Shown here in pieces: positions 16,708 to 63,087 of a stretch of DNA of 64,000 nt; the first letter of the stretch is position 1; every line of letters starts with the position of its first letter. A program made the translations under genes and the position numbers. Under the pieces are notes generated by a model that was not told the DNA's origin, did not search any database, and saw only the letters and a list, made by a program, of their open reading frames with translations. This DNA is from an uncultured candidatus Porisulfidus sp. GTDB taxonomy: Bacteria > Pseudomonadota > Gammaproteobacteria > Poriferisulfidales > Poriferisulfidaceae. The stretch covers positions 1,040,586 through 1,104,585 of the forward strand of contig OZ241993.1 of NCBI GenBank assembly GCA_965204575.1, read 5' to 3'.

Positions 16708-16718
16708 GTCCATCATAA

Positions 16719-23436: not shown

Positions 23437-23446
23437 TGGAGTTGTC

Positions 23447-24190: not shown

Positions 24191-24195
24191 TTTTC

Positions 24196-25769: not shown

Positions 25770-26004
25770 ATGGCGGGTCGAGATCCGGGGATTTTTTCAG
25801 CAACTTGAACGCGAGATTGAACAGTAGTATCAGTCATTTCCATGTGTTTTCCCTGTAGCGGATATGCCCTGATCCTAACTCGATTCCCGTCGCGTCTGTC
25901 AAGTTTATCTATATAGTCCCCTTTTTAGGCATTGAATTCTTCTTCCCCGATCTCCGAGCTAGGGCGATTTTGGGGGATTTTTTCCGTTTGGGGTTGCCCA
26001 CCAA

Positions 26005-27830: not shown

Positions 27831-27871
27831 TCTTTATTTCCTCCTATAATAAGTAAAGGAGGATTTTATAG

Positions 27872-28544: not shown

Positions 28545-28703
28545 GCAAGTGACTGAAGATCAAATGTCTGCATTGATCCTTGTCGCATGTGGATTGTAAA
28601 ACTGCAAAACTGATGTCCAAGACAAATCACTGGTGTTGTACCTCAGAGTTGAACCTGGGTCTTATAAAATATCCCGGTATCGGATTCATACAGGAACGGT
28701 AAC

Positions 28704-29579: not shown

Positions 29580-29587
29580 ATCCTCCA

Positions 29588-38819: not shown

Positions 38820-39514
38820 TGCGGCAGGACGAACTGGTCGCGGCGTATGTGATTCAGGCACGCCCTTGGCGCGAGACCAGCCTGCTGTACAAGGTGGTCG
38901 CACAGGACCATGGTCGGGTCAGCCTGATCCATCGCGGGGCACGCAACAACCGTCGCGACCGGCCGCTGCCGACATTGACCCCGGTACGGGTATCCTGGGG
39001 CGGGCGTGGCAGCTTGTACACCCTGCGCCACGCCGAGGTCGCCGGCCCGATGACAGTGAAAGACCCGAAGCGGCAAGTCTACGCCCTGTACGTCAACGAG
39101 ATTGTCAGCTACCTGCTGCCGGACGATCGCTATTCGGACGAGATCTATCCGCTGTACCACGAGGCACTGGCTCATCTGGACACGGTCGCGGATCCTGAAT
39201 TCGTGCTTCGCGGAATCGAGATGGACTTGCTGCACTTGGCCGGCCATCCGCTGCAACTGGATCGCACCGAGCAGGGGAAGGTCGAGCCGGGCCGGCAATA
39301 TCGTTATCACCCGGGGGCCGGTCCCACGGAACTTCCGGGGGAAAGCGGGGCGGACGGGATCAGCGGCCAGACCCTGCTGACTCTTCAGGCGCGGCAGGAA
39401 ATGGACGAGCAAACGCGGCGCGAGGCGCGCCGCCTGATGCGGCAGGTATTGGACTACTACATTGCCCCGCAGACGATTCGGTCGCGAGGCATCATGCAAG
39501 CACTGACGGGCTGA
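38816..39514 (+). CDS. recO: DNA repair protein RecO
   Basis: 232 aa. An N-terminal OB-fold region and a C-terminal helical domain, in the conserved position after era. Confidence 0.85.
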   Translation: MMRQDELVAAYVIQARPWRETSLLYKVVAQDHGRVSLIHRGARNNRRDRPLPTLTPVRVSWGGRGSLYTLRHAEVAGPMTVKDPKRQVYALYVNEIVSYLLPDDRYSDEIYPLYHEALAHLDTVADPEFVLRGIEMDLLHLAGHPLQLDRTEQGKVEPGRQYRYHPGAGPTELPGESGADGISGQTLLTLQARQEMDEQTRREARRLMRQVLDYYIAPQTIRSRGIMQALTG

Positions 39515-39526
39515 TTCCCGCGACCT
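39424..39526. repeat. Direct repeat copy 1 (recO 3' end); its partner is at 39912-40012
   Basis: About 100 bp at roughly 92% identity. It contains ...cgccgcctgatgcggcaggt(a/g)ttggactactacattgc.... Confidence 0.85.
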
Positions 39527-39662
39527 TAGGACAAACAGCACTGAAATTGAGTTTTCTAATAAATGGTAACGAGCGCAATAGGAATTGCGCTTCTAATGAG
39601 TTCGCCAATTGTGTTTTTTTGGGGACTGGCAGAACTTGTCAGTGTGCTCGAATCAATGAAGC

Positions 39663-39803
39663 AATCCCTTTCTTAGAAGGTCATGGAATTCGCTGATATT
39701 TTTTCTCACATTAGGATATTTTGTTATCTTCCACAGGAAAACACCAATAGAGAGTACCGCGACCCCAGCCACTACAACACTCATAGCGATGATGAAGTCA
39801 GGC
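39663..39803 (-). CDS. Small hydrophobic peptide (46 aa, single TM helix) inside the recO-duplication insert
   Basis: MPDFIIAMSVVVAGVAVLSIGVFLWKITKYPNVRKNISEFHDLLRKGLLH. It lies in an AT-rich segment bounded by the recO-end direct repeats and is too short for the ORF track. Confidence 0.35.
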
Positions 39804-39911
39804 ATCTTGTGCTCCCTTTAATACCAAGATTCAGTATAACAAACCAACCCTCCAAGATTGATTGCATAGGTTCATAAACATTTGAGAACAGCCGGCGGGT
39901 CGCGGTGAGAG

Positions 39912-40012
39912 TCGCGCCGCCTGATGCGGCAGGTGTTGGACTACTACATTGCTCCGCAGACGATTCGGTCGCGGGGCATCATGCAGGCGCTGACGGGTTG
40001 ATTCCTGCGATC
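39912..40012. repeat. Direct repeat copy 2 (displaced recO 3' end)
   Basis: See the repeat at 39424-39526. Confidence 0.85.
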
Positions 40013-40052
40013 CTCGATATGGCACCTGAGCCTCAGCGGCTCAAAGGAGGGG

Positions 40053-40925
40053 TCAAGGCAAGCAGTCTTCGGGTTCAGGCGGTTGCCCGCCGTCCCTACG
40101 CAAGATGCGCAACGCCGCCTCGATATCAGCCTCGGATGCACATGTAGCGAAGAACGAAGCCATTTTCATCGCGGATACCTTTTCGGCGACTGCCATGACG
40201 ACGAACTGGTTGATGCTCGTGCCTTCCTCTTTGCTGATCTCCGTGACCGCCGACTTTAGGGAAGCCGGTAGTCTCAGGGGATAGGTGCTGGCTGGCTTCT
40301 TCATGGCACGGTCGGGCTGTCGGTCGCGAGGTTCGAGTGGTTGGGGAATGCGTTGATTGTCGCGGCAGTACTGCCACAGGTAGGCATCGACTTGTTGCCG
40401 AGTGAGTCCATGCTCCCGGCTCAGAAACGTGACCATCTCTTCCACAGTTGCGGAACACGCGGCGGCGCATTGCTTCATCCAGGTGTCAGGCTTCTCCGTG
40501 TCTTCAAGGCCGATGGCCGTTGCCAAGTGTCGGTTCGTGGCAGGTCCCATATAGGGAAGTTCCGTAAGCACAACCCTGCCGTGCTTGCGCATCCGTTGCT
40601 TGAAAGCCTCCCATCCTTCCGCATGAATCAACTTGCATCCCTTGAGGAAAGCATCCGCCTTCCGCTGATGGCGGATCGGCAGCGTCTGGGCATCTATTGA
40701 CTCCATGGCCACGATCCTGCCCAGGTCGAGGTTGTGGAATTTCTTGACGATGGTGTCGAAGTGCTTCTCGACGACTGAGTTCCGAAAACCCGAGACATAG
40801 ATGACCCAGAGGTACACCTCAAGAAATCCCTTCAGGTCGAGATCGTCGAAAACCCTCGGCTCCCACGGGCTGCCAACATGTGCCTGTGCGGTTTCCAGCA
40901 TCCGTGTTGCCTTGTTCTTATCCAT
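40053..40925 (-). CDS. Fusion protein: Tag-like (3-methyladenine DNA glycosylase I-like, HhH) N-terminal domain plus HicB-like RHH C-terminal domain
   Basis: FLEVYLWVIYVSGFRNSVVEKHFDTIVKKFHNLDLGRIVAM parallels E. coli Tag (FEMICLEGQQAGLSWITVLKKRENYRACFHQFDPVKVAAM). The C-terminus YPLRLPASLKSAVTEISKEEGTSINQFVVMAVAEKV matches the HicB-like antitoxin motif. Confidence 0.55.
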   Translation of the reverse strand: MDKNKATRMLETAQAHVGSPWEPRVFDDLDLKGFLEVYLWVIYVSGFRNSVVEKHFDTIVKKFHNLDLGRIVAMESIDAQTLPIRHQRKADAFLKGCKLIHAEGWEAFKQRMRKHGRVVLTELPYMGPATNRHLATAIGLEDTEKPDTWMKQCAAACSATVEEMVTFLSREHGLTRQQVDAYLWQYCRDNQRIPQPLEPRDRQPDRAMKKPASTYPLRLPASLKSAVTEISKEEGTSINQFVVMAVAEKVSAMKMASFFATCASEADIEAALRILRRDGGQPPEPEDCLP

Positions 40926-41025
40926 TTGTCATTGCCGTTTGCGGGCGGTCCCAACGTGAATTATAAAGAAAGGTTGATGATTTTATTGGCAATCTATAAG
41001 ATGGTTTAAAATAAAAGAGATTCGC

Positions 41026-41945
41026 ATGGCACACAGGCAACCCGGGAAATCGTATCGTCAGGGCATCGCTCTGGCCCACCTGTTCGACACGTTCCCGAAC
41101 GAGAAAGCGGCGCAGGAATGGTTCGAAAGCGTGGTATGGGCGAAGGGACGCTACTGCCCACGCTGTGGCTCTACGAGCACCCACGAGGCCAAGCATGCGA
41201 AATGCCCATACCGTTGCCGCGATTGCGGAAAGTACTTCAGCGTGAAGACGGGAACCGCCATGGCATCGTCCAAAGTTTCTCTTCGCAAGTGGGCCATCGC
41301 CATATACATTGACGCGACCAGCCCGAAAGGCGTGTCTTCGCTCCAGTTGCACCGAGATATCGGTGTGTCGCAGCCCACGGCCTGGTTCATGTTGCACCGC
41401 ATCCGCGAAGGATTCACGGACAAGCGCGCATCTATGGATGGCTTGGCCGAAATTGATGAGATGCACATCGGCGGCAAGCGTAAGAATATGCCCAAGAGTA
41501 AGCGAAAGGAACGGTCAGGGCGGAGTGCAACCGGCAGGACTGCGGTCGTTGGCGTGAAGGATCGCCAGACGAGGAAAGCTCGTGCAAAAGTGGTGGCGGA
41601 CCCGGGTTTGGACACTCTCCATGAGTTTCATTCGTGATCACGTCGCTGATGACGCAAAGGTCTGTACGGACGATGCCGTTCGACTCTGAACCCGTGAAAC
41701 ATGGCATGGGAGAGTACGTGCGGGGCATGGCCTACACGAACGGGGTCGAGTCGCTCGGGCTCATGCTTGAGCGGGGCGATATCGGTATTGATCATCAAAT
41801 GATTGCAAAGCATCTTCACTGGTACGTCAGCGGATTCGCCGGTCGTCACGGGGTGCGCGAGCGGAACACGCTGGAGCAACTGCGGGATGTTGCCGCTAGA
41901 ATGGCCGGCAAGAGGTTGCCGTATTGCGAACGGGTTCGTTTCTGA
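41026..41945 (+). pseudogene. IS1595-family transposase, inactivated by at least two frameshifts
   Basis: An N-terminal Zn-ribbon (CPRCGSTSTHEAKHAKCPYRCRDCGKYF) and DDE region read to EFHS* at 41637. The segment IRDHVADDAKVCTDDA lies in another frame. A third frame carries GMGEYVRGMAYTNGVESLG...HLHWYVSGFAGRH. Confidence 0.75.
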
Positions 41946-41956
41946 CAGGGGAGTGA

Positions 41957-42898
41957 TTGGAGAGCGTCATGGGAAACCCGATTTATGGAGGTGCAACGCC
42001 TGAGCAGGTGGCACTTGAGATGCTTCGGCCATCCAAGTTCATTGAACCGCTTTATGATCTCGTGTTTGGGGACGCCTTTGATTGGCTGGAATCGGCGGAG
42101 CATGAATCGATTCACGCGGTCGTGACCGACCCGCCTTACGGGTTGATCGAATACAAACCTGAACAACTCCAGAAGCGCCGAGATGGCAATGGCGGGGTAT
42201 GGCGTCTGCCGCCTTCGTTTGATGGAAGCAAACGTCAGCCAGTTCCGCGCTTTACGGTCTTGACTGACAGGGACAAAGATGAAATGAGGGCATTTTTTGC
42301 CCGTTTGGCTGAAAGTCTCTACCCGGTCCTCGTTCCAGGGGCCCATGTCTTCATTGCTACCAACCCCCTTCTAGCCCATTTGGTCTTCGAACCGTTCCTT
42401 GCTGCAGGATATGAGAAACGAGGAACGCTGATTCGTGAAGTGCATACGCTGCGCGGCGGTGACCGTCCCAAAAATGCCCATAAGGAATTCCCTGATGTCA
42501 CGGTCATGCCAAGATCATGCTTTGAGCCATGGGAAATTTTCCGGCGTCCGCTTCAAGGACGCGTTCAAGACAATCTGCGAAAGTGGGGAACCGGCGGTCT
42601 TCGGCGTCTCTCTGCGGAGCAACCGTTCAAGGATTTAGTCAAATCGTGTCCAGCGAAGAGGAAGGAGCGGGAAATTGCCCCCCATCCTTCATTGAAACCG
42701 CAAGCGTTTCTTCGGCCGTTGGTGAGGTCCAGCCTTCCTCTTGGTAAAGGTACCATACTCGATCCATTTGCAGGGTCAGGGTCCACCCTTGCAGCGGCGA
42801 TGGCTTGCGGCATAGAGAGTGTGGGCATTGAACGTGACCCGGAATACCATCAAATGGCATTGGACGCCATTCCGGCGTTGGCGCGTTTGGAAGTCTGA
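41957..42898 (+). CDS. Beta-class DNA methyltransferase (N6-adenine or N4-cytosine)
   Basis: Motif IV TDPPYGL comes before motif I DPFAGSGSTLAAA, in the ParB-MTase/beta-class order. Confidence 0.85.
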   Translation: MESVMGNPIYGGATPEQVALEMLRPSKFIEPLYDLVFGDAFDWLESAEHESIHAVVTDPPYGLIEYKPEQLQKRRDGNGGVWRLPPSFDGSKRQPVPRFTVLTDRDKDEMRAFFARLAESLYPVLVPGAHVFIATNPLLAHLVFEPFLAAGYEKRGTLIREVHTLRGGDRPKNAHKEFPDVTVMPRSCFEPWEIFRRPLQGRVQDNLRKWGTGGLRRLSAEQPFKDLVKSCPAKRKEREIAPHPSLKPQAFLRPLVRSSLPLGKGTILDPFAGSGSTLAAAMACGIESVGIERDPEYHQMALDAIPALARLEV

Positions 42899-42900
42899 CC

Positions 42901-43500
42901 ATGTTCGACAATGATGTTCAATTGCCTCCCGGATTGGAGATTTCCGCGATCCAACGCTCTATCGAGTTTGTCGAAAAACAATTAAGTGAACGTGACTTCG
43001 TGGACCTCTATCTTGAACAGGCCAATATATTCAGCGCGTTAGTGGGCATGTTCGCAACCAAGGCGCTGGATCAAGTCAGCAACTATGAAAAGCATCGGCA
43101 TAGCCATACGGCTCAACAACGTTTTCCTGATTTGTGCCGCCGGGGAGCATCCTTCCCACTTAAACCCGAGGATTCACTGGAGAGCAAGGCCAGCAAACGG
43201 CCTTGGGCGATACAATCCCACTACGATCACGCCGGATGGTACATCATCTGGAGATATCTGGTCGACCTGACCAAGACCATCAAGGATGATGCGGCTTTGG
43301 TGATTTGGCGCGTTGATGTCGTCTATTTGACCAAAACCGATTGGAAGTACGAGGGTTCGTCGGCAGATATGAGTGGCGGAGGAAGAACGCATACTTTTGG
43401 TGTGCGAAAACCTGCCACGCGATTGCGGGGCTGTGCCGTCTACAAGCGCCCCGACATCGTCATTCGTGATGGCAAGCCTGTGCCCGTCAACCTTCCTTGA
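42901..43500 (+). CDS. Hypothetical protein, candidate restriction endonuclease partner of the methyltransferase
   Basis: 199 aa, immediately downstream (3-nt gap) of the MTase in a low-GC insertion. No family recognised. Confidence 0.4.
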   Translation: MFDNDVQLPPGLEISAIQRSIEFVEKQLSERDFVDLYLEQANIFSALVGMFATKALDQVSNYEKHRHSHTAQQRFPDLCRRGASFPLKPEDSLESKASKRPWAIQSHYDHAGWYIIWRYLVDLTKTIKDDAALVIWRVDVVYLTKTDWKYEGSSADMSGGGRTHTFGVRKPATRLRGCAVYKRPDIVIRDGKPVPVNLP

Positions 43501-43698
43501 TTCCCTATTCTTTAAGAACAGTCGTAAGCAGGCGCCAACTCCAGGCAGAGGAAAAGCAGCGAAAGCGAAGCTCTTGCTTCCGTATATCCCCTAGGAACCA
43601 AGTTCAAATATGCCTTGCAACTCTTGCGGAGTGTATGCAGGTATTCCCGGAAAGCCTTTAGTGGTAGAGTGTCCATAGCAAAAACTACTTTGTGTACC

Positions 43699-44421
43699 GT
43701 GAAGAATGTACGACTAGGCGTGAATATTGACCACATAGCGACCCTGCGCCAGCAGCGCCACACGGACTACCCGGACCTGGGCGAGGCGATCCGCCGAGTG
43801 GAAGCGGCCGGGGCGGACGGCATCACCCTGCACCTGCGCGAGGACCGGCGGCACATCCAGCTGGAGGACGTGGAACAGGCGCGCCGGGAAGTGAGTGGAA
43901 CCCTGAACCTGGAGATGGCCGCAACCGAGGAGATGCTGGACATTGCGGAACGCATCCGTCCGGATTACTGCTGCCTGGTGCCTGAGCGGCGCGAGGAACT
44001 CACCACTGAAGGCGGTCTGGACGTCGTGGCGGGCGAAGATCGGATCCGGGAGGCGTGCACCCGGCTGAAAGCGGCGGGCATTCAGGTTTCGCTGTTTGTC
44101 GAGCCGACGCACGAAGCGATGGATGCCGCGGTCGAACTGGGTGCGTCGATCGTGGAGTTGCACACCGGTCCCTACGCCAACGCGACGGAGCCGGAAGCCC
44201 ACGAGGCGGAGCTGGAACGGCTGGTTTCCACCACGCAGTATGCGCGGGAACGGCTGACGGTCAACGCCGGACACGGCTTGCATCGCGACAACGTGGGCCC
44301 GGTGGCTTCGATCCCGGGAATGAACGAACTTAATATCGGTCACGCCATCGTCTGCCGGGCGGTGATGGTGGGATTGGAAGGAGCCGTGCGCGAAGTGCGC
44401 GAAGCCATGGAGGCGTCATGA
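43699..44421 (+). CDS. pdxJ: Pyridoxine 5'-phosphate synthase
   Basis: [15 protein letters not shown]...[16 protein letters not shown]...NLEMA...VNAGHGL...ELNIGHAI is the PdxJ signature. GTG start assumed at 43699. Confidence 0.85.
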
Positions 44422-48631: not shown

Positions 48632-48862
48632 TAGAAAGAGTCTTCCCCCGCGCCTCCGCGGCGGGCATCGGGAACGTCCGCGGCACCGCCCCGCGCAGGG
48701 CTGGCCGCGCGAGACGGCGGTCGGGCACGTGGCGCGGCCATCGCCAGGCAGGGCGCGTTCTTTCATGCCGGCCTCAAGCGCCTGCCCAGACCGGGGTTTG
48801 ATAAAGAAAAAACTATTTGTTAAAATCCTGCCCATCATCGGGAAGTGGTATTTGCATCTTTA

Positions 48863-49285
48863 ATGGAACCTAACATCGTTATGCATGGCCGATACATACG
48901 GGATCTATCCTTCGAGAATTTCGGTGCGCCGGCCTTGCCGGGGGACGCCGCCCCCGTCTTCGACATCGACGTCGGGGTGGAGAGCAGGCGGGCCCGGGAC
49001 ATGCACGAGGTGATGCTGTTCGTCCAGGTCACCGCCCGGCGCGAGGAGCAGATCGCGTTCCTGATCGAGTTGAACTACGCCGGCCTGTTCCAGGTCCAGG
49101 ACCTGGACGAGCGGGAGACGCGGCGTTTCCTCCACACCGAGGCGCCGCGCATGCTGTTTCCGTTCGTCGACCGGATCTGCGCGGACGCGACCCGGGACGG
49201 CGGCCTGCCGCCGCTGGCCCTGACGACCCCGGACTTCGCCCTGCTGTACCGGGAACGCGAGGAGAAACCCGCCGCCATCGACTGA
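48863..49285 (+). CDS. secB: SecB-like export chaperone
   Basis: GRYIRDLSFEN..., HEVMLFVQVTARREEQIAFLIELNYAGLF and MLFPFVDRICADATRDGGLPPLALTTPDFALLY align with E. coli SecB. Confidence 0.7.
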   Translation: MEPNIVMHGRYIRDLSFENFGAPALPGDAAPVFDIDVGVESRRARDMHEVMLFVQVTARREEQIAFLIELNYAGLFQVQDLDERETRRFLHTEAPRMLFPFVDRICADATRDGGLPPLALTTPDFALLYREREEKPAAID

Positions 49286-49314
49286 CTACTGAGCCTGTGT
49301 GGAAGCTCAGCCAC

Positions 49315-50727
49315 ATGCAAGAATCCCCCCCCCCCCCCTCAAACCATAACCGGCCTGAACTAGGGCCCGGCGCGGCCCGCGCGCCGGTCCTGCGCCGTCG
49401 CCGTCGCGACGGGTGGCTGCCGCCGGAGAAACGCCGTGCGCGTTCCAGGACGCGGGTGCGCCGGCAGGTGGCGGTCAACGTGCTGGGGGTGTGCTCCATG
49501 CTTTCGCACTCGGTGGCGCCGTACCTGGCGGCGGTCGCCGCGAAAAGCACCACCGCGGTCGGCGCGGTCGGCACGTTCGCCGCCCTGGCGCCCGACGAGG
49601 CGGCGGCGCAAAACCCGGGCCCGGCGGGAGCCAAGGGCGACAAGGGCGACAAGGGCCAGGTGGGCATTCCTGGACGACCGGGCGACAAGGGCGAGGAGAT
49701 GGGCGCACCCCCCGGTGAGAAGGGCGCAACAGGCGTAAAGGGCTCGCCCGGCGGAGAAGGTCAGAAGGGCGATCAGGGACGGCCGGGCAATCGAGGCAGC
49801 CGAGGCATACCGGGCGAAGAGGGGGCGAAGGGCGTGCTGGGATTCAAAGGCCTTCCGGGAGGCGCTGGCGATCAGGGCTCGAAGGGCCCGAGGGGCGATC
49901 CAGGTCCGCAGGGCTCGGCGGGTGTCAAGGGCGATACGGGCCAGAAGGGCGACCCGAAGGCGATCGGTGCCAAGGGCGATACAGGCGAGGCGGGCGCACC
50001 GGGTGCACCGGGCACGCCGGGCGCGCAGGGTTCGCAGGGCGCACAGGGCGCACAGGGCGCGCCGGGCGCACCGGGCGCATCGGGCACGCCGGGCGCCAAA
50101 GGGGAGGCAGGCGCGGGCGGCTTCGATTTTTCCGAGCAGGGGAAGGCGCGGGTCCGGGAGAAGGCCCGGGCCCTGCGGGAATCGGAGAACCCGGCCGACC
50201 AGCGGATCGGTCGGCTGCTGGAAGGCATCCTGGACGAGCTGGCGCCGGCCGCGGGGGGACAGCTGCAGTCGCTGCAGTCCGCCGGCGGGCGGGCGCTGCA
50301 GACCGAGGAGCCGGCGAGTGACAGCCTGACCCTGCTGCGGTATGCCTCCCGCTCCGACACGCCCCGGGCGGAGCAGGCCGGGGCGCTGATGGGCAGCATC
50401 TTCCTGAACCAGCGGGACATCGCCGAGAATCGCCAGAACATCGAGAAGAACCGGCAGGACATCGCCGGGCTGCGGGACGAGGACTACAGGCTGCGCAACC
50501 GCTCGCGCGAGGGGACCGCCCTGGCCATCGCGCTCGGCGGCATCCACTTCCCGCTGGACAAGGACCGGTCCGTCTCGCTGCGCTTCGGGCGCTTCGAGGG
50601 CGAGGAGGCGCTGGCGCTGGGCGCGTCCTTCCGCCTGCGGGAGAACTGGCAGATCGATTTTGGCATGGGCCGGGGGCTGAGCTACCGGCAGAACGGCTAT
50701 TCCGCCGGGCTGAGCTACAGCCGGTAG
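49315..50727 (+). CDS. Collagen-like trimeric autotransporter adhesin, paralog 1: Gly-X-Y repeat stalk, coiled coil, YadA-like C-terminal anchor
   Basis: About 56 Gly-X-Y triplets ([21 protein letters not shown]...), with Lys and Pro frequent in the Y position. The C-terminus [69 protein letters not shown] matches the YadA anchor pattern. The start is uncertain: ATG 49315 reads through the poly-C tract, and ATG 49498 is a conservative internal alternative. Confidence 0.65.
49325..49338. repeat. Poly-C homopolymer tract (14 C) at the 5' end of the first collagen-like adhesin gene
   Basis: aatcccccccccccccctc. It is in frame, encoding SPPPPS, if translation starts at ATG 49315. Confidence 0.9.
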
Positions 50728-50764
50728 GCGGCCCCTGAGACTGAACCACGAGGAGGTGAGGAAG

Positions 50765-52189
50765 ATGAGCAGCGAGGAGAAGAGGCGGCCGGATTCGGAA
50801 GACGGGCTTCCGCCCGAGTCGAGGGAGGCCGCGGGGCGCGCGCCGGTCCTGCGCCGTCGCCGTCGCGACGGGTGGCTGCCGCCGGAGAAGCGCCGTGCGC
50901 GCTCCGGGACGCGGGTGCGCCGGCAGGTGGCGGTCAACGTGCTGGGGGTGTGCTCCATGCTTTCGCACTCGGTGGCGCCGTACCTGACGGCGGTCGCCGC
51001 GAAAAGCACGACCGCGGTCGGCGCGGTCGGCACGTTCGCCGCCCTGGCGCCCGACAAGGCGGCGGCGCAGGACCCGGGCCCGCCGGGCCAGAAGGGCGAA
51101 AAGGGCGACGCGGGCGTACAGGGCGCGCCGGGTTCGCAGGGCGCGCCGGGTGGCGAAAAGGGCGGCCGGGGCGACATGGGCCAGAAGGGCGAGCCGGGTG
51201 ATCCGGGCGCCACGGGCGAGAAGGGTTCGCAGGGCTCACCCGGCAGGCGTGGCATCACCGGCAACAAGGGCGAGGAGGGTGATCCGGGCGCGACAGGTAG
51301 TCAGGGTCAGAAGGGCGTTTTCGGCGAGCCGGGTGATCCGGGTCCGCAGGGCGCGGCAGGTGATCCGGGTCAGAAGGGCGCGATGGGTCAGAAGGGCGAG
51401 GCCGGCGGCCCGCCGGGCCAGAAGGGCCAAAAGGGGACAGCCGGCACAGCCGGCCCGTCGGGCGCCGCCGGTGCGCCGGGCGCAGCCGGTGCGCCGGGCG
51501 CCGCCGGTGCGCCGGGCGCTGCCGGTGCATCGGGCGCCGCCGGTGCGCCGGGCGAGAAAGGCGATGCGGGCGCGGGCGGCCTTGACTTCTCCGAGGAGGG
51601 GAAGGCGCGGATCCGGACCACGGCCCAGATCCTGCAGAAATCGGAGAATCCCGCCGACCGGCAGATCGGGGAGCTGCTCGAGGAGGTCCTGGACGAACTG
51701 GCGCCGGCCGCCGAGGGACAGCTGCAGTCGCTGCAGTCGGCCGGCGGGCAGGCGCTGCAGGCCGGGGAGGAGCCGACGGGCGACAGCCTGGCCCTGCTGC
51801 GCTACGCCGCCCGCTCCGACGTCACCGGGGCGGAGCAGGCCGGGGCGCTGGTGGGCAGCGTGCTCCTGAACCAGCGGGACATCGCCGAGAATCGCCAGAA
51901 CATCGAGAAGAACCGGCAGGACATCGCCGGGCTGCGGCACCAGTACCGCGACCTGCGCGACCGCTCGCGCGAGGGGACCGCCCTGGCCATCGCGCTCGGC
52001 GGCCTGCGCGTCCCGGTGGCCCGGGACTGGGCCGTGTCGCTGCGCTTCGGGCGCTTCGAGGGCGAGGAGGCGGTCGCGCTGGGCGCGGCCTTCCGCCTGA
52101 AGGAGGGCTGGCAGGTCGATTTCGCGCTGGGCCAGGGCCTGAGTTACTCGCAGAACGGCTATGCCGGTGGCGTGAGCTACAGCTGGTAG
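50765..52189 (+). CDS. Collagen-like trimeric autotransporter adhesin, paralog 2
   Basis: A strong SD (AGGAGG) sits 8 nt upstream of ATG 50765. There is an Arg-rich N-terminal extension, a conserved hydrophobic leader, about 50 Gly-X-Y triplets, and a YadA-like anchor ending ...GVSYSW. Confidence 0.8.
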
Positions 52190-52199
52190 CCCGGTCGCG

Positions 52200-52832
52200 A
52201 TGGCGGTGCGGCGGCGGGCGGCGGAGGCGGCGATGCGGCACTTGCTGACGTACGAGGGGGCACGGGCGGACGGCTGCTGGCGGGAGGTCGCCCCGGACAT
52301 CCTGACCTTCCCGTTCTGGACCCCGGACTTCTGCGAGGAACTGGTGGCGGTGTCCGAGCTGCTCGACGAGTTCCGCCCGTACGCCCCCGACGTGGAGGGC
52401 AACGCCGCGCCGGGGCAGGAACTGCGGATCAACCGGATCAGCCCGCGCTTCGCGGAACAGTTCGAGACGCATTTCCAGGAGCGCGCGGCGCCGATCCTCC
52501 GCGTGCACTGGTGGCCGCTGAACCTGGGCAAGACGCGCATGCCCTTCGTGCTGCGCTACTCCGCCGACACGCAGGCCTCCCTCGACCCGCACCACGACGC
52601 CGCCATGGTGAGCCTGGCGATGCCGCTCAACGCCGGCTACGAGGGCGGGCACCTGACCTTCCCGCGCCAGCACTGGGACAGCCGCGAGGTCGAGGTCGGG
52701 CACGTGATCGCCTTTCCGAGCCGGGTCACCCACGTGCACTGGGTCACGCCGGTGACCTCCGGGACCCGCTACGCGATGACCTGCTGGCTGTCCGACCCGA
52801 ACGCCCAGCCCGACGATGCCATTCTCGCGTGA
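52200..52832 (+). CDS. 2OG-Fe(II) oxygenase homologous to the catalytic domain of procollagen lysyl hydroxylase (PLOD/LH)
   Basis: LDPHHDAAMVSLAMPLNAGYEGGHLTF...HVIAFPSRVTHVHWVTPVTSGTRYAMTCWLSDP parallels the human PLOD C-terminus ([29 protein letters not shown]...GTRYIMVSFVDP). HxD...H iron triad. Confidence 0.8.
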   Translation: MAVRRRAAEAAMRHLLTYEGARADGCWREVAPDILTFPFWTPDFCEELVAVSELLDEFRPYAPDVEGNAAPGQELRINRISPRFAEQFETHFQERAAPILRVHWWPLNLGKTRMPFVLRYSADTQASLDPHHDAAMVSLAMPLNAGYEGGHLTFPRQHWDSREVEVGHVIAFPSRVTHVHWVTPVTSGTRYAMTCWLSDPNAQPDDAILA

Positions 52833-54267
52833 GGAGCCGGCGGACGTCCCCGCCGTCCTTGTCGTCCACCTCGCGCGCCACCGGGAACGCCGCCGCCGCC
52901 TGTCCGCCCTGCTGAAGCGGCACGGGTTCGCGCACGTGAACTGGCTCGACGCGGTGGACGGCCGGGAGCTGGACCCCGCGCCGCCGTGGCGGGGCGCCGG
53001 CCTGCCGCCGGCCAACGCCTGGCCGAACTGGGCGGATCCGTACGCCCGCCGCGCCCTGACCCTGGGCGAGGTTGCCTGTACCCTGTCGCACGTGGCCGCC
53101 TGGCGGCGCATCGCGGACGAGGGCTACCCCGCCATCGTGCTGGAGGACGATGCGCTCCCGGTGGAGCCGCTGATCCGGGACCTGCCGGACCTGCTGGCGG
53201 ACCTCGATCACTTCGACTTCGACCTGTGCTACCTCGCCCAGCGCAACGCGCCGGGGCCGAAGGCGCTGATGGGCCGGCACGTGCACCTGGTCGACTACCA
53301 CCCGGTGTGGACGCTGGCCTACCTGCTGGCGCCGTCCGGCGCGGAGAAGCTGCTCGCCAGCCCCTGGCAGAGCCGGCTGGTCCCGGCCGACGAACTCCTG
53401 CCCGCCGCGTTCGGCCGGAACCGGGACCCGGAGATCAACCGGGCCTACGTCGGCGACGGCGGCATGGTGCTGTCCAGCAACCAGCGCTTCTTCACCCCGG
53501 CCGAGGGTTCGGAGAGCAGCGAGACCGAGAAGAGCCGGCCGGTGCGGGAGCCGGAATGCGGCCTGACGGGCCTGACCGTGGCGACCGAACGCCGCCCGGA
53601 ACTGCAGCGCCTGCAGGAGTCCGGCCTGCGCTACGGCCTGGAGATCGAGGCCCTGGGGCTGGGCCAGCCCTGGCGCGGCGGCGAGATGTCCGAGGGCACC
53701 GGCGGGGGACAGAAGATCAACCTGCTGCGCCCCGCCCTGCAGCGGCTGCCGCCGGAGCGGCCGGTGCTGTTCGTGGACGGCTACGACACCCTGATCTCCG
53801 GGCATGTCTCGGACATCCTGGGCGCCTGGCGGCAGACCTGCGACGGCCCGCTGTTCGCCGCCGAGGTCTACTGCTGGCCGGATCGCGACCGGGCCGACGA
53901 CTACCCTTCCGCGGCGACCCCCTACCGCTTCCTGAACTCCGGCGCCTTCATCGGCAAGGCCGGGGACCTGCTGCGCATCCTGGACGGGAAGATCGACGAC
54001 CGCGCGGACGACCAGCGCTACTACACCGAGCGCTTCCTGTCCGGCCGGCACGGCATGACGCTGGACACCGAGTGCCGGGTCTTCCAGTGCCTCAACGGCG
54101 CCCTGGACGACGTGCGGGCGGACGAGGGGCGGGGCATGCTGTTCAACCGGCGCACCGAGAACTGGCCGGCGGTGATCCACGCGAACGGCCCAAGCAAGGA
54201 GTGGCTGGAGAAGGACGGCCGGCCCGTGGGCGGCCGCTGGCGCCGCTACTACGGGGAGATGATTTGA
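52816..54267 (+). CDS. Bifunctional glycosyltransferase: N-terminal GT25 (collagen galactosyltransferase/LgtB-like) domain fused to a PLOD/LH3-type glycosyltransferase domain
   Basis: GT25 motifs VLVVHLARHRERR, LTLGEVACTLSHVAAWRRI and IVLEDD. The C-terminal half (LTVATE..LGLGQPWRGG..GGGQK..LFVDGYDTLISG..CWPD..YRFLNSGAFIG..YYTERFL..VFQCLNGALDDV..IHANGPSK) is colinear with the N-terminal GT domain of human lysyl hydroxylases. Confidence 0.8.
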   Translation: MPFSREEPADVPAVLVVHLARHRERRRRLSALLKRHGFAHVNWLDAVDGRELDPAPPWRGAGLPPANAWPNWADPYARRALTLGEVACTLSHVAAWRRIADEGYPAIVLEDDALPVEPLIRDLPDLLADLDHFDFDLCYLAQRNAPGPKALMGRHVHLVDYHPVWTLAYLLAPSGAEKLLASPWQSRLVPADELLPAAFGRNRDPEINRAYVGDGGMVLSSNQRFFTPAEGSESSETEKSRPVREPECGLTGLTVATERRPELQRLQESGLRYGLEIEALGLGQPWRGGEMSEGTGGGQKINLLRPALQRLPPERPVLFVDGYDTLISGHVSDILGAWRQTCDGPLFAAEVYCWPDRDRADDYPSAATPYRFLNSGAFIGKAGDLLRILDGKIDDRADDQRYYTERFLSGRHGMTLDTECRVFQCLNGALDDVRADEGRGMLFNRRTENWPAVIHANGPSKEWLEKDGRPVGGRWRRYYGEMI

Positions 54268-54286
54268 ATCTCTGGTTGAGGTAACG

Positions 54287-54709
54287 ATGAGCAAAAGAAT
54301 TTCAGCACTGGTCATCCTTGTCGCGCTGTCCCTGCCGCTGACCGCGCAGGCGCACGACAACCTCTTCAATCCGGGGCACCAGCACGGGCTTGAGGTCGAT
54401 GCCATTTCCGAGCGCAACAGAGGGTCTTTCTGCATCGTGTTCAAGGAATCTTCGGTCGAGTGTCCAGAGAAGTACAACAGCCTCAGAGGGTGCGCGTACA
54501 AGTGCCTGTACCGGGTATGGGCGGACTGGTCGGACGACCGGGGGAGTGGCCGCGAGGTCGATCATAACTGGAGCCGCTGCCATATTGCAGGCAGTCACAA
54601 CCCGGCGCTTGCGGCGGCGGAAGTCCGCATCACCAAGCCGCACTGGGCGACCGGGGCCTGGGGCGCGTATGTCCGCGCCGGGGATGACGGAGAAAAGATC
54701 GTGAGGTGA
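54287..54709 (+). CDS. Small secreted Cys-containing protein (signal peptide)
   Basis: MSKRISALVILVALSLPLTAQA signal peptide; 7 Cys residues; low-GC segment. Confidence 0.5.
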   Translation: MSKRISALVILVALSLPLTAQAHDNLFNPGHQHGLEVDAISERNRGSFCIVFKESSVECPEKYNSLRGCAYKCLYRVWADWSDDRGSGREVDHNWSRCHIAGSHNPALAAAEVRITKPHWATGAWGAYVRAGDDGEKIVR

Positions 54710-54737
54710 GACTGATGAACCCAAACAGGAGAAAATC

Positions 54738-55031
54738 ATGAAGAAAACCATACCCGCGCTGATCCTGATGCTGGCCTTGTCCCCGGCATACGGATTGGCA
54801 CCTAAACCCCGACCCCTTGTGGACATCTGCAAGGATCACTTCGAAAGAAGTTCCGCCTACCAGAGTTGCACCGATATTCAATATGCGGATGTCGGCGGCG
54901 GCTACTGCAAGGTCATGGCGTGGTGCCGCTCGGTAAATGAAACGCTATCTTCCACGTCCAAGAGGACAAAGCCGTCGGAGGCCGACGAACTGTACAACTG
55001 TCAGGGCCAGTTGACGATCAAGGTTTGCTGA
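54738..55031 (+). CDS. Small secreted Cys-rich protein (signal peptide)
   Basis: MKKTIPALILMLALSPAYGLA signal peptide, an SD (AGGAGA) upstream, and 8 Cys residues. Confidence 0.5.
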   Translation: MKKTIPALILMLALSPAYGLAPKPRPLVDICKDHFERSSAYQSCTDIQYADVGGGYCKVMAWCRSVNETLSSTSKRTKPSEADELYNCQGQLTIKVC

Positions 55032-55083
55032 TGGCCGGAGCAACGAGGCTAATCGTGAGCGGCGTGTTCGCCTGACCTGGGCC

Positions 55084-56055
55084 ATGCCTTCCGGGGAACC
55101 CGTGCTGGTCACCGGCGGGGCTGGCTACGTGGGCAGCCATGTGGCGCTGGCGCTTCGCGAGGCGGGCTACCCTGCCGTGGTCCTCGACGACCTCTCCACG
55201 GGGCGGCGCGAGGCGGTGCCCGACGGGGTTGGATTCATCGAGGGCGATGTCGGCGACCGGGTCGCCGTCGGCCGCATCCTCGGGGAATCCCGCATCGCCG
55301 CCGTCGTGCATTGCGCCGCCAGCGTCAGCGTCCCCGAATCCGTGCGCGACCCGCTACGCTACTACCGCAACAACAACAGTGCGGGCACGGGCTTGGTCCG
55401 CGCCTGCGTCGAGGCCGGGGTGGGACGCTTCGTCTTCTCGTCGACCGCCTCGGTGTACGGCGTGCCGCGCACGGTGCCGATCCCCGAGGATGCCCTGACC
55501 CTCCCCATCAATCCCTACGGATGCTCCAAGCTGGCCTCCGAATGGATGCTGCGCGATGTCGCGGCGGCCCACGACTTCCGCTGCATCACGCTGCGCTGCT
55601 TCAATGCGGCCGGGGCCGACCCCCGGGGCCGGGCCGGGTCGGATGGCCCGGATTCCGGACACCTGATCGAGGTCGCCTGTGCGGCCCTCGCCGGCCGCCG
55701 CGACCGCGTCACCGTGTACGGCACGGACTACGGGACGGCGGACGGCACCTGCGTGCGGGATTACGTCCACGTGTCGGATCTCGCCGCAGCCCATGTCGCC
55801 GCGCTGCGCGAGCTCGAGGACGGGGGGGAAGGCGGCGTGTTCAACTGCGGCTACGGACGCGGCTTCTCGGTCCGCGAGGTGTTGGAGACGGTGCAGGCCG
55901 AGGCGCGCGTGCGCCTCGACATCCGCGACGGGCCGCGTCGCGCCGGCGACCCCCCGGTGCTGATCGCCGAGGCGTCGAGAATTCGACGGACGCTGCGCTG
56001 GTCGCCGCGCTTCGACGACCTCGCCGTGATCGTCCGCACCGCACTCGCCCGCTGA
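55084..56055 (+). CDS. galE: UDP-glucose 4-epimerase
   Basis: Rossmann motif VLVTGGAGYVGSH, catalytic YGCSK, and an SDR extended-family C-terminus. Confidence 0.85.
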   Translation: MPSGEPVLVTGGAGYVGSHVALALREAGYPAVVLDDLSTGRREAVPDGVGFIEGDVGDRVAVGRILGESRIAAVVHCAASVSVPESVRDPLRYYRNNNSAGTGLVRACVEAGVGRFVFSSTASVYGVPRTVPIPEDALTLPINPYGCSKLASEWMLRDVAAAHDFRCITLRCFNAAGADPRGRAGSDGPDSGHLIEVACAALAGRRDRVTVYGTDYGTADGTCVRDYVHVSDLAAAHVAALRELEDGGEGGVFNCGYGRGFSVREVLETVQAEARVRLDIRDGPRRAGDPPVLIAEASRIRRTLRWSPRFDDLAVIVRTALAR

Positions 56056-56207: not shown

Positions 56208-56450
56208 TCATGCGAGCAGCCGGGTCAACTGCGCCCGCGACAGCCCGGTGGCCTTGCCCAGGTATGCCTTGAACGCCCCCTTGTCGGCCTTGCCCAGGTG
56301 CGGGCAGTCAAACTGCCGGCAGGTGGCTTCGGTGAAGCGGCAGGCGTCGCAGCGGGAGACCGGCTCCAGGTCGAACGAGTCGTTGCCGGCGGTGAAGTCG
56401 CGCAGGTCCTGCAGGGTCCGGATGCGTCGGGTGTTTAGCTTCAAGATCAT
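56208..56450 (-). CDS. Hypothetical small Cys-containing protein (weak call)
   Basis: An 80-aa stretch from an internal Met of a longer minus-strand ORF, with a CDACRFTEATCRQFDC cluster. Uncertain. Confidence 0.2.
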   Translation of the reverse strand: MILKLNTRRIRTLQDLRDFTAGNDSFDLEPVSRCDACRFTEATCRQFDCPHLGKADKGAFKAYLGKATGLSRAQLTRLLA

Positions 56451-56722
56451 CCTTCGGATGATCCCGCAGCCCTTCAGGCTCCTGTCTCGTTGGAAATGGT
56501 ATGAAGGCCGCCTTGGTTTTGGCGGGCGGATCATCAGGAGAGAGAGGCGAACCCTCCAGCCTGGTTGCTGGAAACCGATATTGTCCACCTGGGGCACTTT
56601 AGATGCCGTACCGGACTGCTGGAGGGTTCGCCTCCTCATCCGATCAGATCCAGGCCGGGCGGCCTTTATAATGGCAATCCACAAATGACGGGCTTCGGAA
56701 GCATCGGAGCATCGGCCAAACA

Positions 56723-57349
56723 ATGGAAGGACCCGACATCGTCTGCGTTCACCAGACCAACTTCCTGGAAAAGGAGGAAGCGCTCCGCCTGCGCGACCAG
56801 ATGGCCCAGGCCATCTCCCTGCACGGAAGCCAGGGGACCGTGGGCAGCAGAGACGGGAATTTCAGCGTCGACAAAACCTACCGGAACTCCAAGATCTACT
56901 TCCTCGACCCGTGGAACCCGCCCGACTGCATGGACGGCGACCTGGTGCGGGCGGTGTTCTACAAGATCGCCGGGTTTGCGGAAATCGCCTGCCGCACCAC
57001 CCTCAAGCACCTTGACATCCGCCTGAACGATCTCGCCGGCACCCCGCTTCAACTCGGCCGCTACCGGGTGGGCGAGCGGTACGAGGAGCATTCCGACAAC
57101 AGCGAGAGTTCGCATAAGGGGCGGCTGCTCTCGATCTCCGTGACCGTCTCGAGCGCCCGCGAGGGCGGCCACCTCTTGCTCAGGCGGCTTCCTCCGAGCA
57201 GTCCGGCGGTCGAGGAAATCCGGCAGGACCGGGCCATCGTCGCCTTTCCGAGCTGGGAACGGCACAGCGTGAGCGCCGTCGAGCAAGGGGAACGCTATTC
57301 GATCGTGACGTGGTTCGAAGGCACGCGCGGAAGCCCGGGGCAGCGGTGA
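56723..57349 (+). CDS. Prolyl 4-hydroxylase-like 2OG-Fe(II) oxygenase (P4Hc/PKHD type)
   Basis: RVGERYEEHSDNSE (HxD) ... KGRLLSISVTVSSAREGGHLLL ... AFPSWERHSVSAVEQGERYSIVTWF fit the P4Hc fold and match the layout of YbiX/PiuC-type hydroxylases. Confidence 0.7.
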   Translation: MEGPDIVCVHQTNFLEKEEALRLRDQMAQAISLHGSQGTVGSRDGNFSVDKTYRNSKIYFLDPWNPPDCMDGDLVRAVFYKIAGFAEIACRTTLKHLDIRLNDLAGTPLQLGRYRVGERYEEHSDNSESSHKGRLLSISVTVSSAREGGHLLLRRLPPSSPAVEEIRQDRAIVAFPSWERHSVSAVEQGERYSIVTWFEGTRGSPGQR

Positions 57350-57728
57350 CCGAGGCCCTGGGCCCGGACGCGGAAGGCGGGGCCGCCAGGCAGGCGGAAA
57401 CGGAAGAGGGCGTCGGCAGCGCCCTGCCCGAGGCGAGCAACTCACAAGTGCGGTGAATCAAGCGGCAGGCCTGCGGCTACCGCAGCCGCGAACGCGCCCG
57501 CCAAGCCATCTGCTTCCACCTCGGCGGGCCCGGCCTTTGTCCGGGACCTCCGTTCCAATTCCGTGAAGCCCCCCGCACATAGTCGGTCTCCATAGCGTAT
57601 ATAAGGATAAATGCACACAGGCAATGAGGGCAATGAGGGTGCGCGTGGGTTAGGCAATAATGGTAAGATAATCCTGCACCTGAAATGGATACGGTGCCTT
57701 GTATGGATGATTTGTACGGGAGAAGAAA

Positions 57729-57887
57729 ATGGAAGCATTTGATTGGGTTCTCGGCTCCGTACAGATTGTAATTTTAGGATTTTTGTGGACACTGCATAAG
57801 GACATGTCTCGTCTTGGTGAACGAGTAGCTAAGCTTGAAGGATTGTTTGAAGGATTTATTCGTACAGATAGAGAAAGCACCGCATAA
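57729..57887 (+). CDS. Small hydrophobic protein (52 aa, one TM helix), weak call
   Basis: MEAFDWVLGSVQIVILGFLWTLHKDMSRLGERVAKLEGLFEGFIRTDRESTA, in an AT-rich segment. Confidence 0.25.
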   Translation: MEAFDWVLGSVQIVILGFLWTLHKDMSRLGERVAKLEGLFEGFIRTDRESTA

Positions 57888-61783: not shown

Positions 61784-62380
61784 ATGAAGAGCCTTCCGAA
61801 ACGCATCATGGAGCATGCGCAATCCCTGCCGGAAGCGGCGCCGCTGTGCGCGGGCGCCCTGCTGCACCTGGGCAACCGGGCCGCGGTCGACCAGTCGCTG
61901 TCGCGCCTGGCGAAGTCCGGGAAACTCTTGCGGGTCTGTCAGGGAGTCTATGTGCGACCCATTGAAACGCGCTTCGGCCTGCGCAACCCCTCTACCAGGC
62001 AGGCTGTCCGGGCGCTTTCGGAATTGTGGGGAGAAACTGTGGTCCCATGTGGCGGGGGAGCCGCCAGTGCCCTCGGCTTGACGACCCAGAATCCCGTCCA
62101 GTCGGTTTACCTGACTTCGGGGGCTGACCGCGAGCTACGGTTCGGGGCCCTGTCCGTGCTGTGGCGCCACGCTCCGCGCTGGCAACTGGTCGCGCCGAAC
62201 CGGCTGGCCGGCGCCGTCGTTCGGGCGCTGTCCTGGCTGCATCGCGAAGAGGCGGAAGAGGCGCTCAGGCAAGTCCTGCCCAATCTTTCCGAAGAGGACA
62301 AGGCCGAATTGCTCGAGGTTCGGGCGGTTATTCCGACTTGGATGGCGCAGGCCGTCAGCGAGGTGGTGGCCGGTGGCTGA
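61784..62380 (+). CDS. AbiEi-like (DUF6088-type) putative type IV antitoxin/transcriptional regulator, orphan
   Basis: The N-terminus PLCAGALLHLGNRAAVDQSLSRLAKSGKLLRVCQGVYVRP fits the AbiEi N-terminal winged-helix pattern. No AbiEii nucleotidyltransferase gene is adjacent. Confidence 0.55.
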   Translation: MKSLPKRIMEHAQSLPEAAPLCAGALLHLGNRAAVDQSLSRLAKSGKLLRVCQGVYVRPIETRFGLRNPSTRQAVRALSELWGETVVPCGGGAASALGLTTQNPVQSVYLTSGADRELRFGALSVLWRHAPRWQLVAPNRLAGAVVRALSWLHREEAEEALRQVLPNLSEEDKAELLEVRAVIPTWMAQAVSEVVAGG

Positions 62381-62498
62381 AACTTTTCTCCGTCTCTTGT
62401 CGGACGATGATCGGCGAGACCTTCTGGACCTTGTTGCAGGAATGCACGCGCGGTCTGACCATGTAGCACCTTTTTAGACATCACTTGATGTATAATTT

Positions 62499-62729
62499 AT
62501 GCATCATTCCCGGATGGAGGCCGGCATGCGAACGACCCTGAACATCGACGAGACCCTGCTGGCGCAGGCGCGGCTGCTCACCGACATCGAGTCGAAATCG
62601 AAGTTGGTGCGCGAGGCGCTGAGGGCGCTGGTGGAGCGGGAGAGTGCCCGCCGGCTCGCGAAACTGGGTGGCAGCCAGCCTGAACTTCTGGACGTTCCGC
62701 GCCGCCGTCTCGCCGATGATCCTGGTTGA
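62499..62729 (+). CDS. vapB: VapB-family antitoxin
   Basis: MRTTLNIDETLLAQARLLTDIESKSKLVREALRALVERESARRLAKLGG. Confidence 0.8.
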   Translation: MHHSRMEAGMRTTLNIDETLLAQARLLTDIESKSKLVREALRALVERESARRLAKLGGSQPELLDVPRRRLADDPG

Positions 62730-63087
62730 CACCTCGGTCTGGGTCGAGCATTTCCGCGTCGGCAACGAGGCGCTGGTCCGCCTGCTCGATGAACATCAGG
62801 TGTGGGTCCATCCGTTCGTAATCGGCGAGGTCGCCTGCGGCAACCTCGAGGATCGCAAGGAAATTCTGTCGGGGCTCACGCATCTTCCCGCGGTGCCGGT
62901 GGCGACGCATTCCGAGGTGCTGTTCTTCTTGGAGCGGAACCGGTTGGCAGGGCTCGGCATCGGCTACATCGACCTGCACTTGCTGGCGTCGGCATCGCTG
63001 GCGCCGCCGATGCGGCTGTGGACGCGGGACCGGCGTCTCGGGACGGTGGCGGACGGCATGGATTGCGCTTATGGACGCCACCACTAG
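62716..63087 (+). CDS. vapC: VapC-family PIN-domain toxin
   Basis: MILVDTSVWVEHF... The start overlaps the vapB stop. Confidence 0.85.
   Translation: MILVDTSVWVEHFRVGNEALVRLLDEHQVWVHPFVIGEVACGNLEDRKEILSGLTHLPAVPVATHSEVLFFLERNRLAGLGIGYIDLHLLASASLAPPMRLWTRDRRLGTVADGMDCAYGRHH

Follow-up and report, generated by a model that had tools for sequence, protein, structure and literature searches.

Do bacteria hydroxylate the prolines of their own collagen-like proteins? Prokaryotic collagen-like proteins usually carry proline at the X position and threonine at the Y position of their G-X-Y triplets, they are without hydroxyproline (Hyp), hydroxylysine (Hyl) and collagen glycosylation, and their triple helix is thought to be stabilised by means other than Hyp (PMC8968730). 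The question is raised by a stretch of 64,000 nucleotides (hereafter the window) from an uncultured candidatus Porisulfidus sp. (assembly GCA_965204575.1, contig OZ241993.1, positions 1,040,586 to 1,104,585 of the forward strand), in which a gene at 56723-57349 (+ strand) encodes a 208-aa single-domain 2-oxoglutarate (2OG)/Fe(II) oxygenase near a cassette of collagen-like adhesins and homologs of animal collagen-modifying enzymes. This gene and its product, called the target below, have a predicted fold of the PHD/PPHD-like prolyl-hydroxylase type and conserved collagen-like neighbours. We favour, with modest confidence, the reading that the target is a peptidyl-prolyl hydroxylase of PHD/PPHD-like type that works in the cytoplasm on the X-Pro-Gly triplets of the collagen-like adhesins, and that it probably makes Hyp in a bacterial collagen.

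A prolyl-hydroxylase-like 2OG/Fe(II) oxygenase

The target open reading frame (ORF) starts with the ATG at 56723 and ends with the stop codon at 57347-57349. The start methionine lies at the same position in the orthologs, the ratio of nonsynonymous to synonymous substitution rates (dN/dS) is 0.12-0.28 across divergent ortholog pairs, and the GC content at third codon positions (GC3), 0.86, is in line with that of the genome; the target is therefore a real gene under purifying selection. No hydrophobic signal was seen in its N-terminus (MEGPDIVCVHQTNFLEKEE).

Pfam PF13640 (2OG-FeII_Oxy_3) matches the target with an E value of 7.3e-12 (46.5 bits, for a gathering cut-off of 27), which places the protein in this superfamily, and no further domain was found by the Pfam scan. 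The metal triad is formed by H123, D125 and H181, the 2OG-binding residues are R191 and S193, and W197 follows. H123-S-D125, H181 and R191-Y-S193 (within GERYSIVTWF) are invariant in 5 of 5 orthologs and in a 20-sequence family alignment in which identity falls to 23-33%; in an alignment of 126 sequences, R54, H123, D125, H181, R191 and W197 are invariant, S193 being the exception. The AlphaFold (AF2) model built on this larger alignment (predicted local distance difference test 93.9, predicted template modelling score 0.90) has the jelly-roll strands of a double-stranded beta-helix (DSBH) carrying the HxD...H motif and the basic 2OG residue. The initial annotation had read a second 2OG-Fe(II) oxygenase here, with HxD...H and an RxS Arg, and this holds, the first being the PLOD-type homolog at 52200-52832. 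It had also likened the protein to prolyl 4-hydroxylases (P4Hs); the likeness stands at the level of the fold, which is closest to that of protein prolyl 4-hydroxylases, but does not extend to membership of the classic collagen P4H subfamily, as described below.

When the target alone was compared with the sequences of the PDB, a single match was obtained, the PKHD-type protein Sbal_3634 (E 0.041). With the family profile, the matches covering the whole barrel were Sbal_3634 again (7.9e-13) and the EF-Tu prolyl hydroxylase PPHD (2e-12), followed by the collagen P4H of PBCV-1 (2.4e-7), the Chlamydomonas P4H (9.4e-7) and P3H1 (1.2e-6) and, more weakly, by PiuC (2.3e-6), the Bacillus anthracis P4H (BaP4H; 2.5e-4) and P4HA2 (7.8e-3). 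In the PPHD alignment, RERLSLTGWF faces geRlSivlWl of the family, that is, a common RxS...W segment. In a Foldseek search of the PDB with the target model, the best 50 matches were all protein prolyl 4-hydroxylases (50/50), the top set comprising PPHD, Dictyostelium PhyA, Chlamydomonas P4H, PHD2 and the PBCV-1 collagen P4H. Lower structural scores were obtained for OGFOD1/Tpa1 (14.5-15.2), PiuC (14.2), C-P4H-II (13.8) and BaP4H (13.7), and the lowest scores listed were those of P3H1 (12.0) and the mimivirus lysyl hydroxylase (11.9). An hhalign comparison of the target with PHD2, in which the PHD2 residue numbers serve as a lead only, gave a probability of 94% and paired R54 with R252, H123 and D125 with H313 and D315, H181 with H374, R191 with R383, and W197 with W389. 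With PHD/PPHD enzymes as its closest solved folds, an RxS motif followed by Trp, and an Arg in the beta2-beta3 hairpin, the target is, by sequence and modelled structure, a PHD/PPHD-like member of the prolyl-hydroxylase branch.

The target is outside the classic collagen P4H subfamily (animal C-P4H alpha, B. anthracis P4H, plant and viral P4Hs). It lacks close sequence kinship to these enzymes over the full catalytic domain. In the collagen P4H branch a Lys binds the C5-carboxylate of 2OG; position 191 of the target is the invariant Arg of RxS. The target likewise has none of the traits of the animal enzyme (a peptide-substrate-binding domain, a PDI beta subunit and endoplasmic reticulum targeting), being a single domain of 208 aa. 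Identity as a PLOD-type lysyl hydroxylase (LH) was considered and rejected: no lysyl hydroxylase appeared among the PDB matches of the family profile, and the fold score of the mimivirus LH is the lowest cited above.

Genomic partners of the target in bacteria and phages

Close homologs of the target form four 90%-identity clusters among 5.8 billion proteins, and its ortholog group amounts to one 50%-identity cluster among 1.84 billion representatives, a rarity that fits a specialised enzyme and not a housekeeping one. For the close orthologs (L001/L002, L003, L004, L005 and L014-L017; 73-90% identity), every locus recovered adjoins a shared cassette that comprises a collagen-like adhesin, a lysyl hydroxylase homolog, a GT25/GT_PLOD glycosyltransferase and GalE. 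The orientation differs: the target ortholog is divergent from the collagen gene in L001/L002 and convergent with GalE in L003, L004, L005 and L014-L017, GalE being its immediate neighbour in most related loci. The outer flanks of target plus cassette are of four kinds, including glnD/map, enolase/ftsB/lnt, and an ABC transporter with a PF13759 oxygenase and SecB. As the outer flanks change while the adjacency persists, the target and the cassette stay together. A contig scan with a single glycosyltransferase protein reached close relatives only (3 loci).

P0005 (E 1.4e-30) is the closest outgroup homolog; its gene and a distant cassette (L007) are about 540 kb apart on one chromosome of 2,093,083 bp. 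At its locus (L018), P0005 (10001-10606, + strand) is divergently paired with a gene for a 1106-aa GT2+GT1 glycosyltransferase (5982-9302, - strand), a pairing in which glycosylation downstream of hydroxylation is possible. A third kind of oxygenase, PF13759 (2OG-FeII_Oxy_5), is found near target-family genes at 3034-3717 (-) of L004 and 15548-16177 (+) of the phage-like contig L019; the two copies are 35% identical (E 1e-36), and the gene is missing from the window and from the other loci examined.

The next relatives of the target (27-33% identity over the full length) are encoded on phage-like contigs that carry portal, Peptidase_S74 and polyvalent-protein genes, and these remote homologs sit in phage structural modules. 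On L019, the homolog P0006 (E 1.9e-25) begins 1 nt past the stop codon of a collagen-like ORF of 1151 aa (6544-9999, + strand) with 345 G-X-Y triplets, in which Pro occupies 124 X and 140 Y positions (41% Pro at Y) and Lys is practically nil. The gene caller had split this ORF into wrong-frame genes, and the C-terminal domain of its product (YPW..GLLYDNRNE) is found again in a fibre gene of L010. Directly 5' of the homolog in L013 lies a gene for a 74-aa Gly/Pro-rich protein with 8 G-X-Y triplets, again free of Lys, and L008 and L010 have fibre-like genes with Pro-rich, Lys-free G-X-Y runs 1-7 kb 5' of the homolog. The near absence of Lys in these phage partners argues that, if they are substrates, the modified residue is proline.

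In two further phage contigs a gene for a 376-aa PF13640 oxygenase stands directly 5' of the target-family gene (L011, 132-1262; L012, 2002-3132; both + strand). This oxygenase is nearer to the target (37% over 115 aa) than to lysyl hydroxylase, and the pairs resemble the two-oxygenase layout of the bacterial locus. In the cultured-phage collection, the matches of the target, all distant (24-35%), were 2OG oxygenases of cyanophages and pelagiphages with no assigned role, and the matches in BFVD and to PHROG phrog_61 were equally generic. Single-protein scans of viral contigs with P0005, P0154, P0018, P0155 and P0020 gave nothing.

The collagen cassette of the window

The genes of the cassette in the window lie on the + strand. 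Two paralogous genes, 49297-50727 and 50756-52189, encode collagen-like trimeric autotransporter adhesins, the proposed substrates (Pfam Collagen E 2.5e-22 and 1.1e-23; YadA_anchor E 5.9e-8 and 3.2e-7). The first adhesin has 54 G-X-Y triplets; its N-terminus is extended and basic/hydrophobic, and it also carries a coiled stalk and a membrane anchor of the YadA type. Runs of at least 6 G-X-Y triplets in any frame were found nowhere else in the 64-kb window, nor in L018 or elsewhere in L003. As the initial annotation had noticed, the collagen domains are rich in proline at Y: 3 Pro at X and 14 at Y in the first adhesin, 3 and 15 in the second (8 and 25 in the collagen of L005). Lys follows the same placement, with 0 at X and 14 at Y in the first adhesin and 0 and 11 in the second, which is the X-Lys-Gly context of lysyl hydroxylases. 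Judged from their composition, these domains look animal-like at exactly those positions that the animal enzymes modify.

Downstream, the 210-aa first 2OG oxygenase (52200-52832) is a homolog of the PLOD LH domain: in a PDB sequence search it aligned over about 180 residues with the LH domains of human LH3 (E 5.8e-14) and mimivirus L230 (E 1.1e-12). It is followed by a 483-aa fused GT25 and GT_PLOD glycosyltransferase (52816-54267; Pfam GT_PLOD E 1.7e-57, Glyco_transf_25 E 2e-17), whose two halves have different matches in the PDB: the procollagen galactosyltransferase COLGALT1 (E 8.3e-23) for the N-terminal one, and the glucosyltransferase domain of LH3 (E 1.8e-40) together with mimivirus R699 (E 8.1e-34) for the C-terminal one. 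The UDP-glucose 4-epimerase GalE (55084-56055; TIGR01179 E 1.2e-117, 392 bits for a cut-off of 262) presumably supplies UDP-galactose (UDP-Gal) to the cassette. As far as homology indicates, each of the three enzymes in the animal hydroxylysine-Gal-Glc pathway thus has a counterpart in the cassette, which also holds a supplier of UDP-Gal and, from 49297 to 56055, is probably more notable than the target gene itself.

Two small ORFs are present between the glycosyltransferase and GalE genes on the + strand (54287-54709, 140 aa; 54738-55031, 97 aa). Their products have hydrophobic N-termini and several Cys, and their GC content is 0.62 and 0.55, for 0.72 in the neighbours; neither matches a Pfam or NCBIfam family, and both are missing at that place in L001. 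A gene for a SecB-family export chaperone precedes the adhesin genes (48845-49285, + strand; Pfam SecB E 1.2e-34). SecB genes occur near cassette and target in three lineages (the window; L001, 10856-11278; L004, 3839-4294) and adjoin the target in L001 and L004; their position and orientation vary between lineages, and compared with L001 the window has the gene at another place and in inverted orientation. A role of SecB as an export chaperone dedicated to the collagen-like adhesins is possible.

The target starts 668 bp past GalE, and the gap holds, on the opposite strand, an integrase/transposase-like N-terminal fragment (56208-56495, - strand) that we take as a boundary feature outside the system. 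This fragment corresponds to about the first 95 codons and has a weak tblastn match (38% identity, E 1e-5) to an annotated Polaromonas plasmid integrase; it has no Pfam or NCBIfam match. In the closest relative, L001, the target ortholog (90% protein identity) is located at 10001-10624. Compared with L001, the block from the collagen genes to GalE is inverted in the window and collinearity breaks at the 56208-56495 fragment, whereas the target block (56679-57506) and the flanking glnD/map genes are still collinear, that is, the target lies outside the inverted block. The claim that the target belongs to the same island as the collagen genes is thus to be narrowed: given the gap, the integrase-like fragment and its place outside the inversion, the target is best described as a conserved neighbour of the operon with the collagen genes and cannot be claimed to share its transcript. 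Synonymous divergence (dS) between the window and L001 is 0.09 for the target, 0.26-0.33 for the flanking core genes and 0.39-0.61 for the cassette genes, with SecB, at 0.61, more diverged than the core genes. The target value is about threefold below that of the flanking core genes and four- to sixfold below that of the cassette genes. The target may have been exchanged recently, or be constrained at synonymous sites, and the cassette may evolve fast or have been replaced. The number of terminator-like sites near the target is within the expectation from shuffled sequences.

Beyond the target, the segment 57500-58200 of the window has a lower GC content and holds only small ORFs at the place of the L001 SecB gene; none of these has a family match, and one of 52 aa (57729-57887) has a hydrophobic segment. 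Further on, at 61784-63087, lie toxin-antitoxin-like genes: a DUF6088/AbiEi-like ORF (61784-62380), and a small ORF and the ORF 62644-63087 that are the counterparts of the VapB/PIN pair of L001. Stretches with a GC content of 0.50-0.57, on a background of 0.63-0.69, occur at 16000-30000 and 39000-44000 and may be further islands.

Proposed function, alternatives and relation to known systems

The target lacks a signal peptide and consists of a single domain, and it should therefore act in the cytoplasm. In the mechanism we propose, Fe would be held by H123, D125 and H181 and the distal carboxylate of 2-oxoglutarate by R191 and S193; oxidative decarboxylation would generate a ferryl species by which the proline of X-Pro-Gly triplets is hydroxylated, most likely at C4, while the adhesin chains are still unfolded in the cytoplasm. 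In parallel, the PLOD-type lysyl hydroxylase would act on Lys at Y, and the GT25/GT_PLOD fusion would then add galactose and glucose to yield Glc-Gal-Hyl, with UDP-Gal provided by GalE. The modified chains would be kept export-competent by SecB, a plausible holdase, and cross the inner membrane through Sec; anchored by its YadA-type barrel, the adhesin would fold into a triple helix that Hyp would stabilise. Glycosylated autotransporters are a precedent for cytoplasmic modification prior to Sec export. Taken as a whole, this picture, full animal-style collagen maturation (4-Hyp at Y and Glc-Gal-hydroxylysine on autotransporter adhesins) in the cytoplasm of possibly sponge-associated gammaproteobacteria, with the prolyl step performed by a new PHD-like clade that phages also use on collagen-like fibres, is put forward tentatively, as somewhat short of an even chance.

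Several observations weigh against a collagen-directed prolyl hydroxylase. The fold likeness leaves the substrate unfixed, and PPHD, the enzyme most similar in structure, has EF-Tu and not collagen as its substrate. The target is never clearly within the operon, being divergent in L001, convergent in L003, L004 and L005 and, in the window, 668 bp off and separated by the opposite-strand fragment; no sigma-70-like site was found near it by promoter scan, and its divergence between the window and L001 resembles that of the flanking core genome or is lower, unlike that of the cassette. Two distant cassettes, L006 (Arenicellales) and L007, have neither the target nor GalE within 10 kb. For L006 this accords with the favoured reading, as its collagen is nearly Pro-free (2 at X, 2 at Y). 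Among the phage contigs, 3 of 7 (L009, L011 and L012) show no G-X-Y run in the stretch at hand, phage fibres quite often contain collagen-like repeats, and the phage sample is small. As the bacterial lineages with the target are related to each other and 4 of the 7 phage contigs share one metagenome, the contexts are not fully independent.

These points leave room for a PPHD/PHD-type hydroxylase that modifies a globular protein other than collagen (EF-Tu, a ribosomal protein or a regulator, for example) and whose adjacency to the cassette would merely be inherited. We regard this as unlikely: the target and PPHD share only 18-19% identity, the extreme rarity of the clade is not what is expected of a housekeeping modifier, the adjacency has been kept across four outer neighbourhoods and several inversions, and remote homologs lie directly 3' of collagen-like genes in phage fibre modules. 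The same genomic context, which ties the target to collagens, is shared by a reading in which the adhesins are the substrates of another chemistry: prolyl 3-hydroxylation, a second lysyl hydroxylase, modification of another residue, or Hyp serving chiefly as a site of sugar attachment. P3H1 is a detectable relative, the outgroup homolog P0005 is paired with a glycosyltransferase, and BaP4H accepts proline at X as well as at Y in vitro (PMC8968730); the rejection of an LH identity and the Lys-poor phage partners speak for proline, and we hold this reading to be about as improbable as the preceding one.

The remaining explanations have still less to recommend them. A small-molecule oxygenase (a free-proline hydroxylase, or an enzyme tailoring sugar nucleotides or secondary metabolites), possibly serving the glycosylation branch together with GalE, appears quite improbable given a fold whose best matches are protein hydroxylases. 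A hitch-hiking or decaying gene without present role would account for the integrase-like fragment standing between target and operon, for the lack of a promoter-like site in the scan and for a dN/dS of 0.52 relative to the closest relative, but the frame is intact and of equal length across lineages, the catalytic residues are all invariant, dN/dS is low at longer divergence and GC3 is that of the genome, which makes an inert gene very unlikely. The initial annotation had offered as its alternative a PKHD/PiuC-type hydroxylase, tied to iron or siderophore uptake, and had named PiuC-type best homologs, in a synteny unrelated to collagen genes, as what would count against its proposal. The sole direct PDB sequence match is indeed of the PKHD type, and there are weak matches to the NCBIfam PiuC/YbiX-type (PRK05467) equivalogs. 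These stay far under the cut-offs (37.4 bits for 143; 17 for 180), the fold is nearer to protein prolyl 4-hydroxylases than to PiuC, the synteny elsewhere is with collagen-like genes, and neither a Fur box nor an iron-regulated phenotype was seen. The annotation had found no TonB-dependent receptor nearby, and indeed neither such a receptor nor iron-uptake genes occur among the genes of the window between 43.6 and 63 kb, of L001-L005 and of L018. A PKHD/PiuC/YbiX-type identity was therefore rejected; already largely refuted, it has scarcely any likelihood left.

The locus thus joins homologs of animal-type hydroxylysine/Gal-Glc enzymes to a separate prolyl-hydroxylase-like enzyme, with Pro and Lys at Y as in animal collagens. 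If the target does make Hyp, bacterial and apparently phage collagens can mature in the animal manner, the rule that prokaryotic collagens are without Hyp would be overturned, and the origin of collagen-modifying enzymes would become testable in simple systems. A soluble, PDI-independent enzyme of 208 aa would also be a candidate tool where E. coli is to produce recombinant collagen in hydroxylated form, a step known to be a bottleneck. An origin in a sponge symbiont is plausible and would point to mimicry of host collagen at the molecular level. The presence of collagen-modifying enzymes in some bacteria is mentioned in one paper (PMC12279948); in the literature searched, we found no description of the target clade, of the cassette or of its pairing of a lysyl hydroxylase with a collagen-like autotransporter, of the coupling of the target to a cassette of collagen autotransporter, LH and GT25/GT_PLOD, or of the phage pairing.

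Among known enzymes, the closest in fold are PPHD of P. putida, acting on EF-Tu (PDB 4iw3/4j25), and the PHDs (PHD2/EGLN1, Trichoplax PHD and Dictyostelium PhyA), to which the target is only 16-20% identical. These enzymes are known to act on loops of regulators, be they globular or disordered (EF-Tu, HIF-alpha, Skp1), whereas the conserved genomic partners of the target are collagen-like repeat proteins; unlike PPHD and the PHDs, the target clade is very rare and occurs in phages too. PKHD-type Sbal_3634 (3dkq) and PiuC/YbiX are the best raw PDB sequence matches over the C-terminal half of the barrel and have the RxS Arg in common with the target. The sequence match to two P4Hs of proline-rich repeats, the viral vCPH of PBCV-1 (5c5t) and the algal CrP4H-1 of Chlamydomonas (2jig/3gze), spans only the HxD half of the barrel, and that branch uses Lys for 2OG where the target has the RxS Arg. 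With B. anthracis P4H (3itq/5hv0/5iax) and the catalytic domain of human collagen P4H (7zsc), the target has the superfamily and the DSBH fold in common; among bacterial enzymes, in vitro hydroxylation of collagen-like (PPG)n peptides has been demonstrated for BaP4H alone (PMC8968730). Mimivirus L230/R699 and animal LH3/COLGALT1 are clear homologs of the cassette neighbours, not of the target, which is not LH-like. Mimivirus and the cassette are alike in that collagen and the enzymes for modifying it are encoded side by side in a genome that is not an animal's; the cassette differs from both the mimivirus and the animal arrangement by its separate LH and GT25/GT_PLOD fusion, and by a substrate that is predicted to be an outer-membrane autotransporter. 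In vitro activity of BaP4H, viral collagen P4Hs and the mimivirus LH and glycosyltransferase were thus already known; what is new here is a prolyl-hydroxylase-like clade with a new, collagen-like genomic partner.

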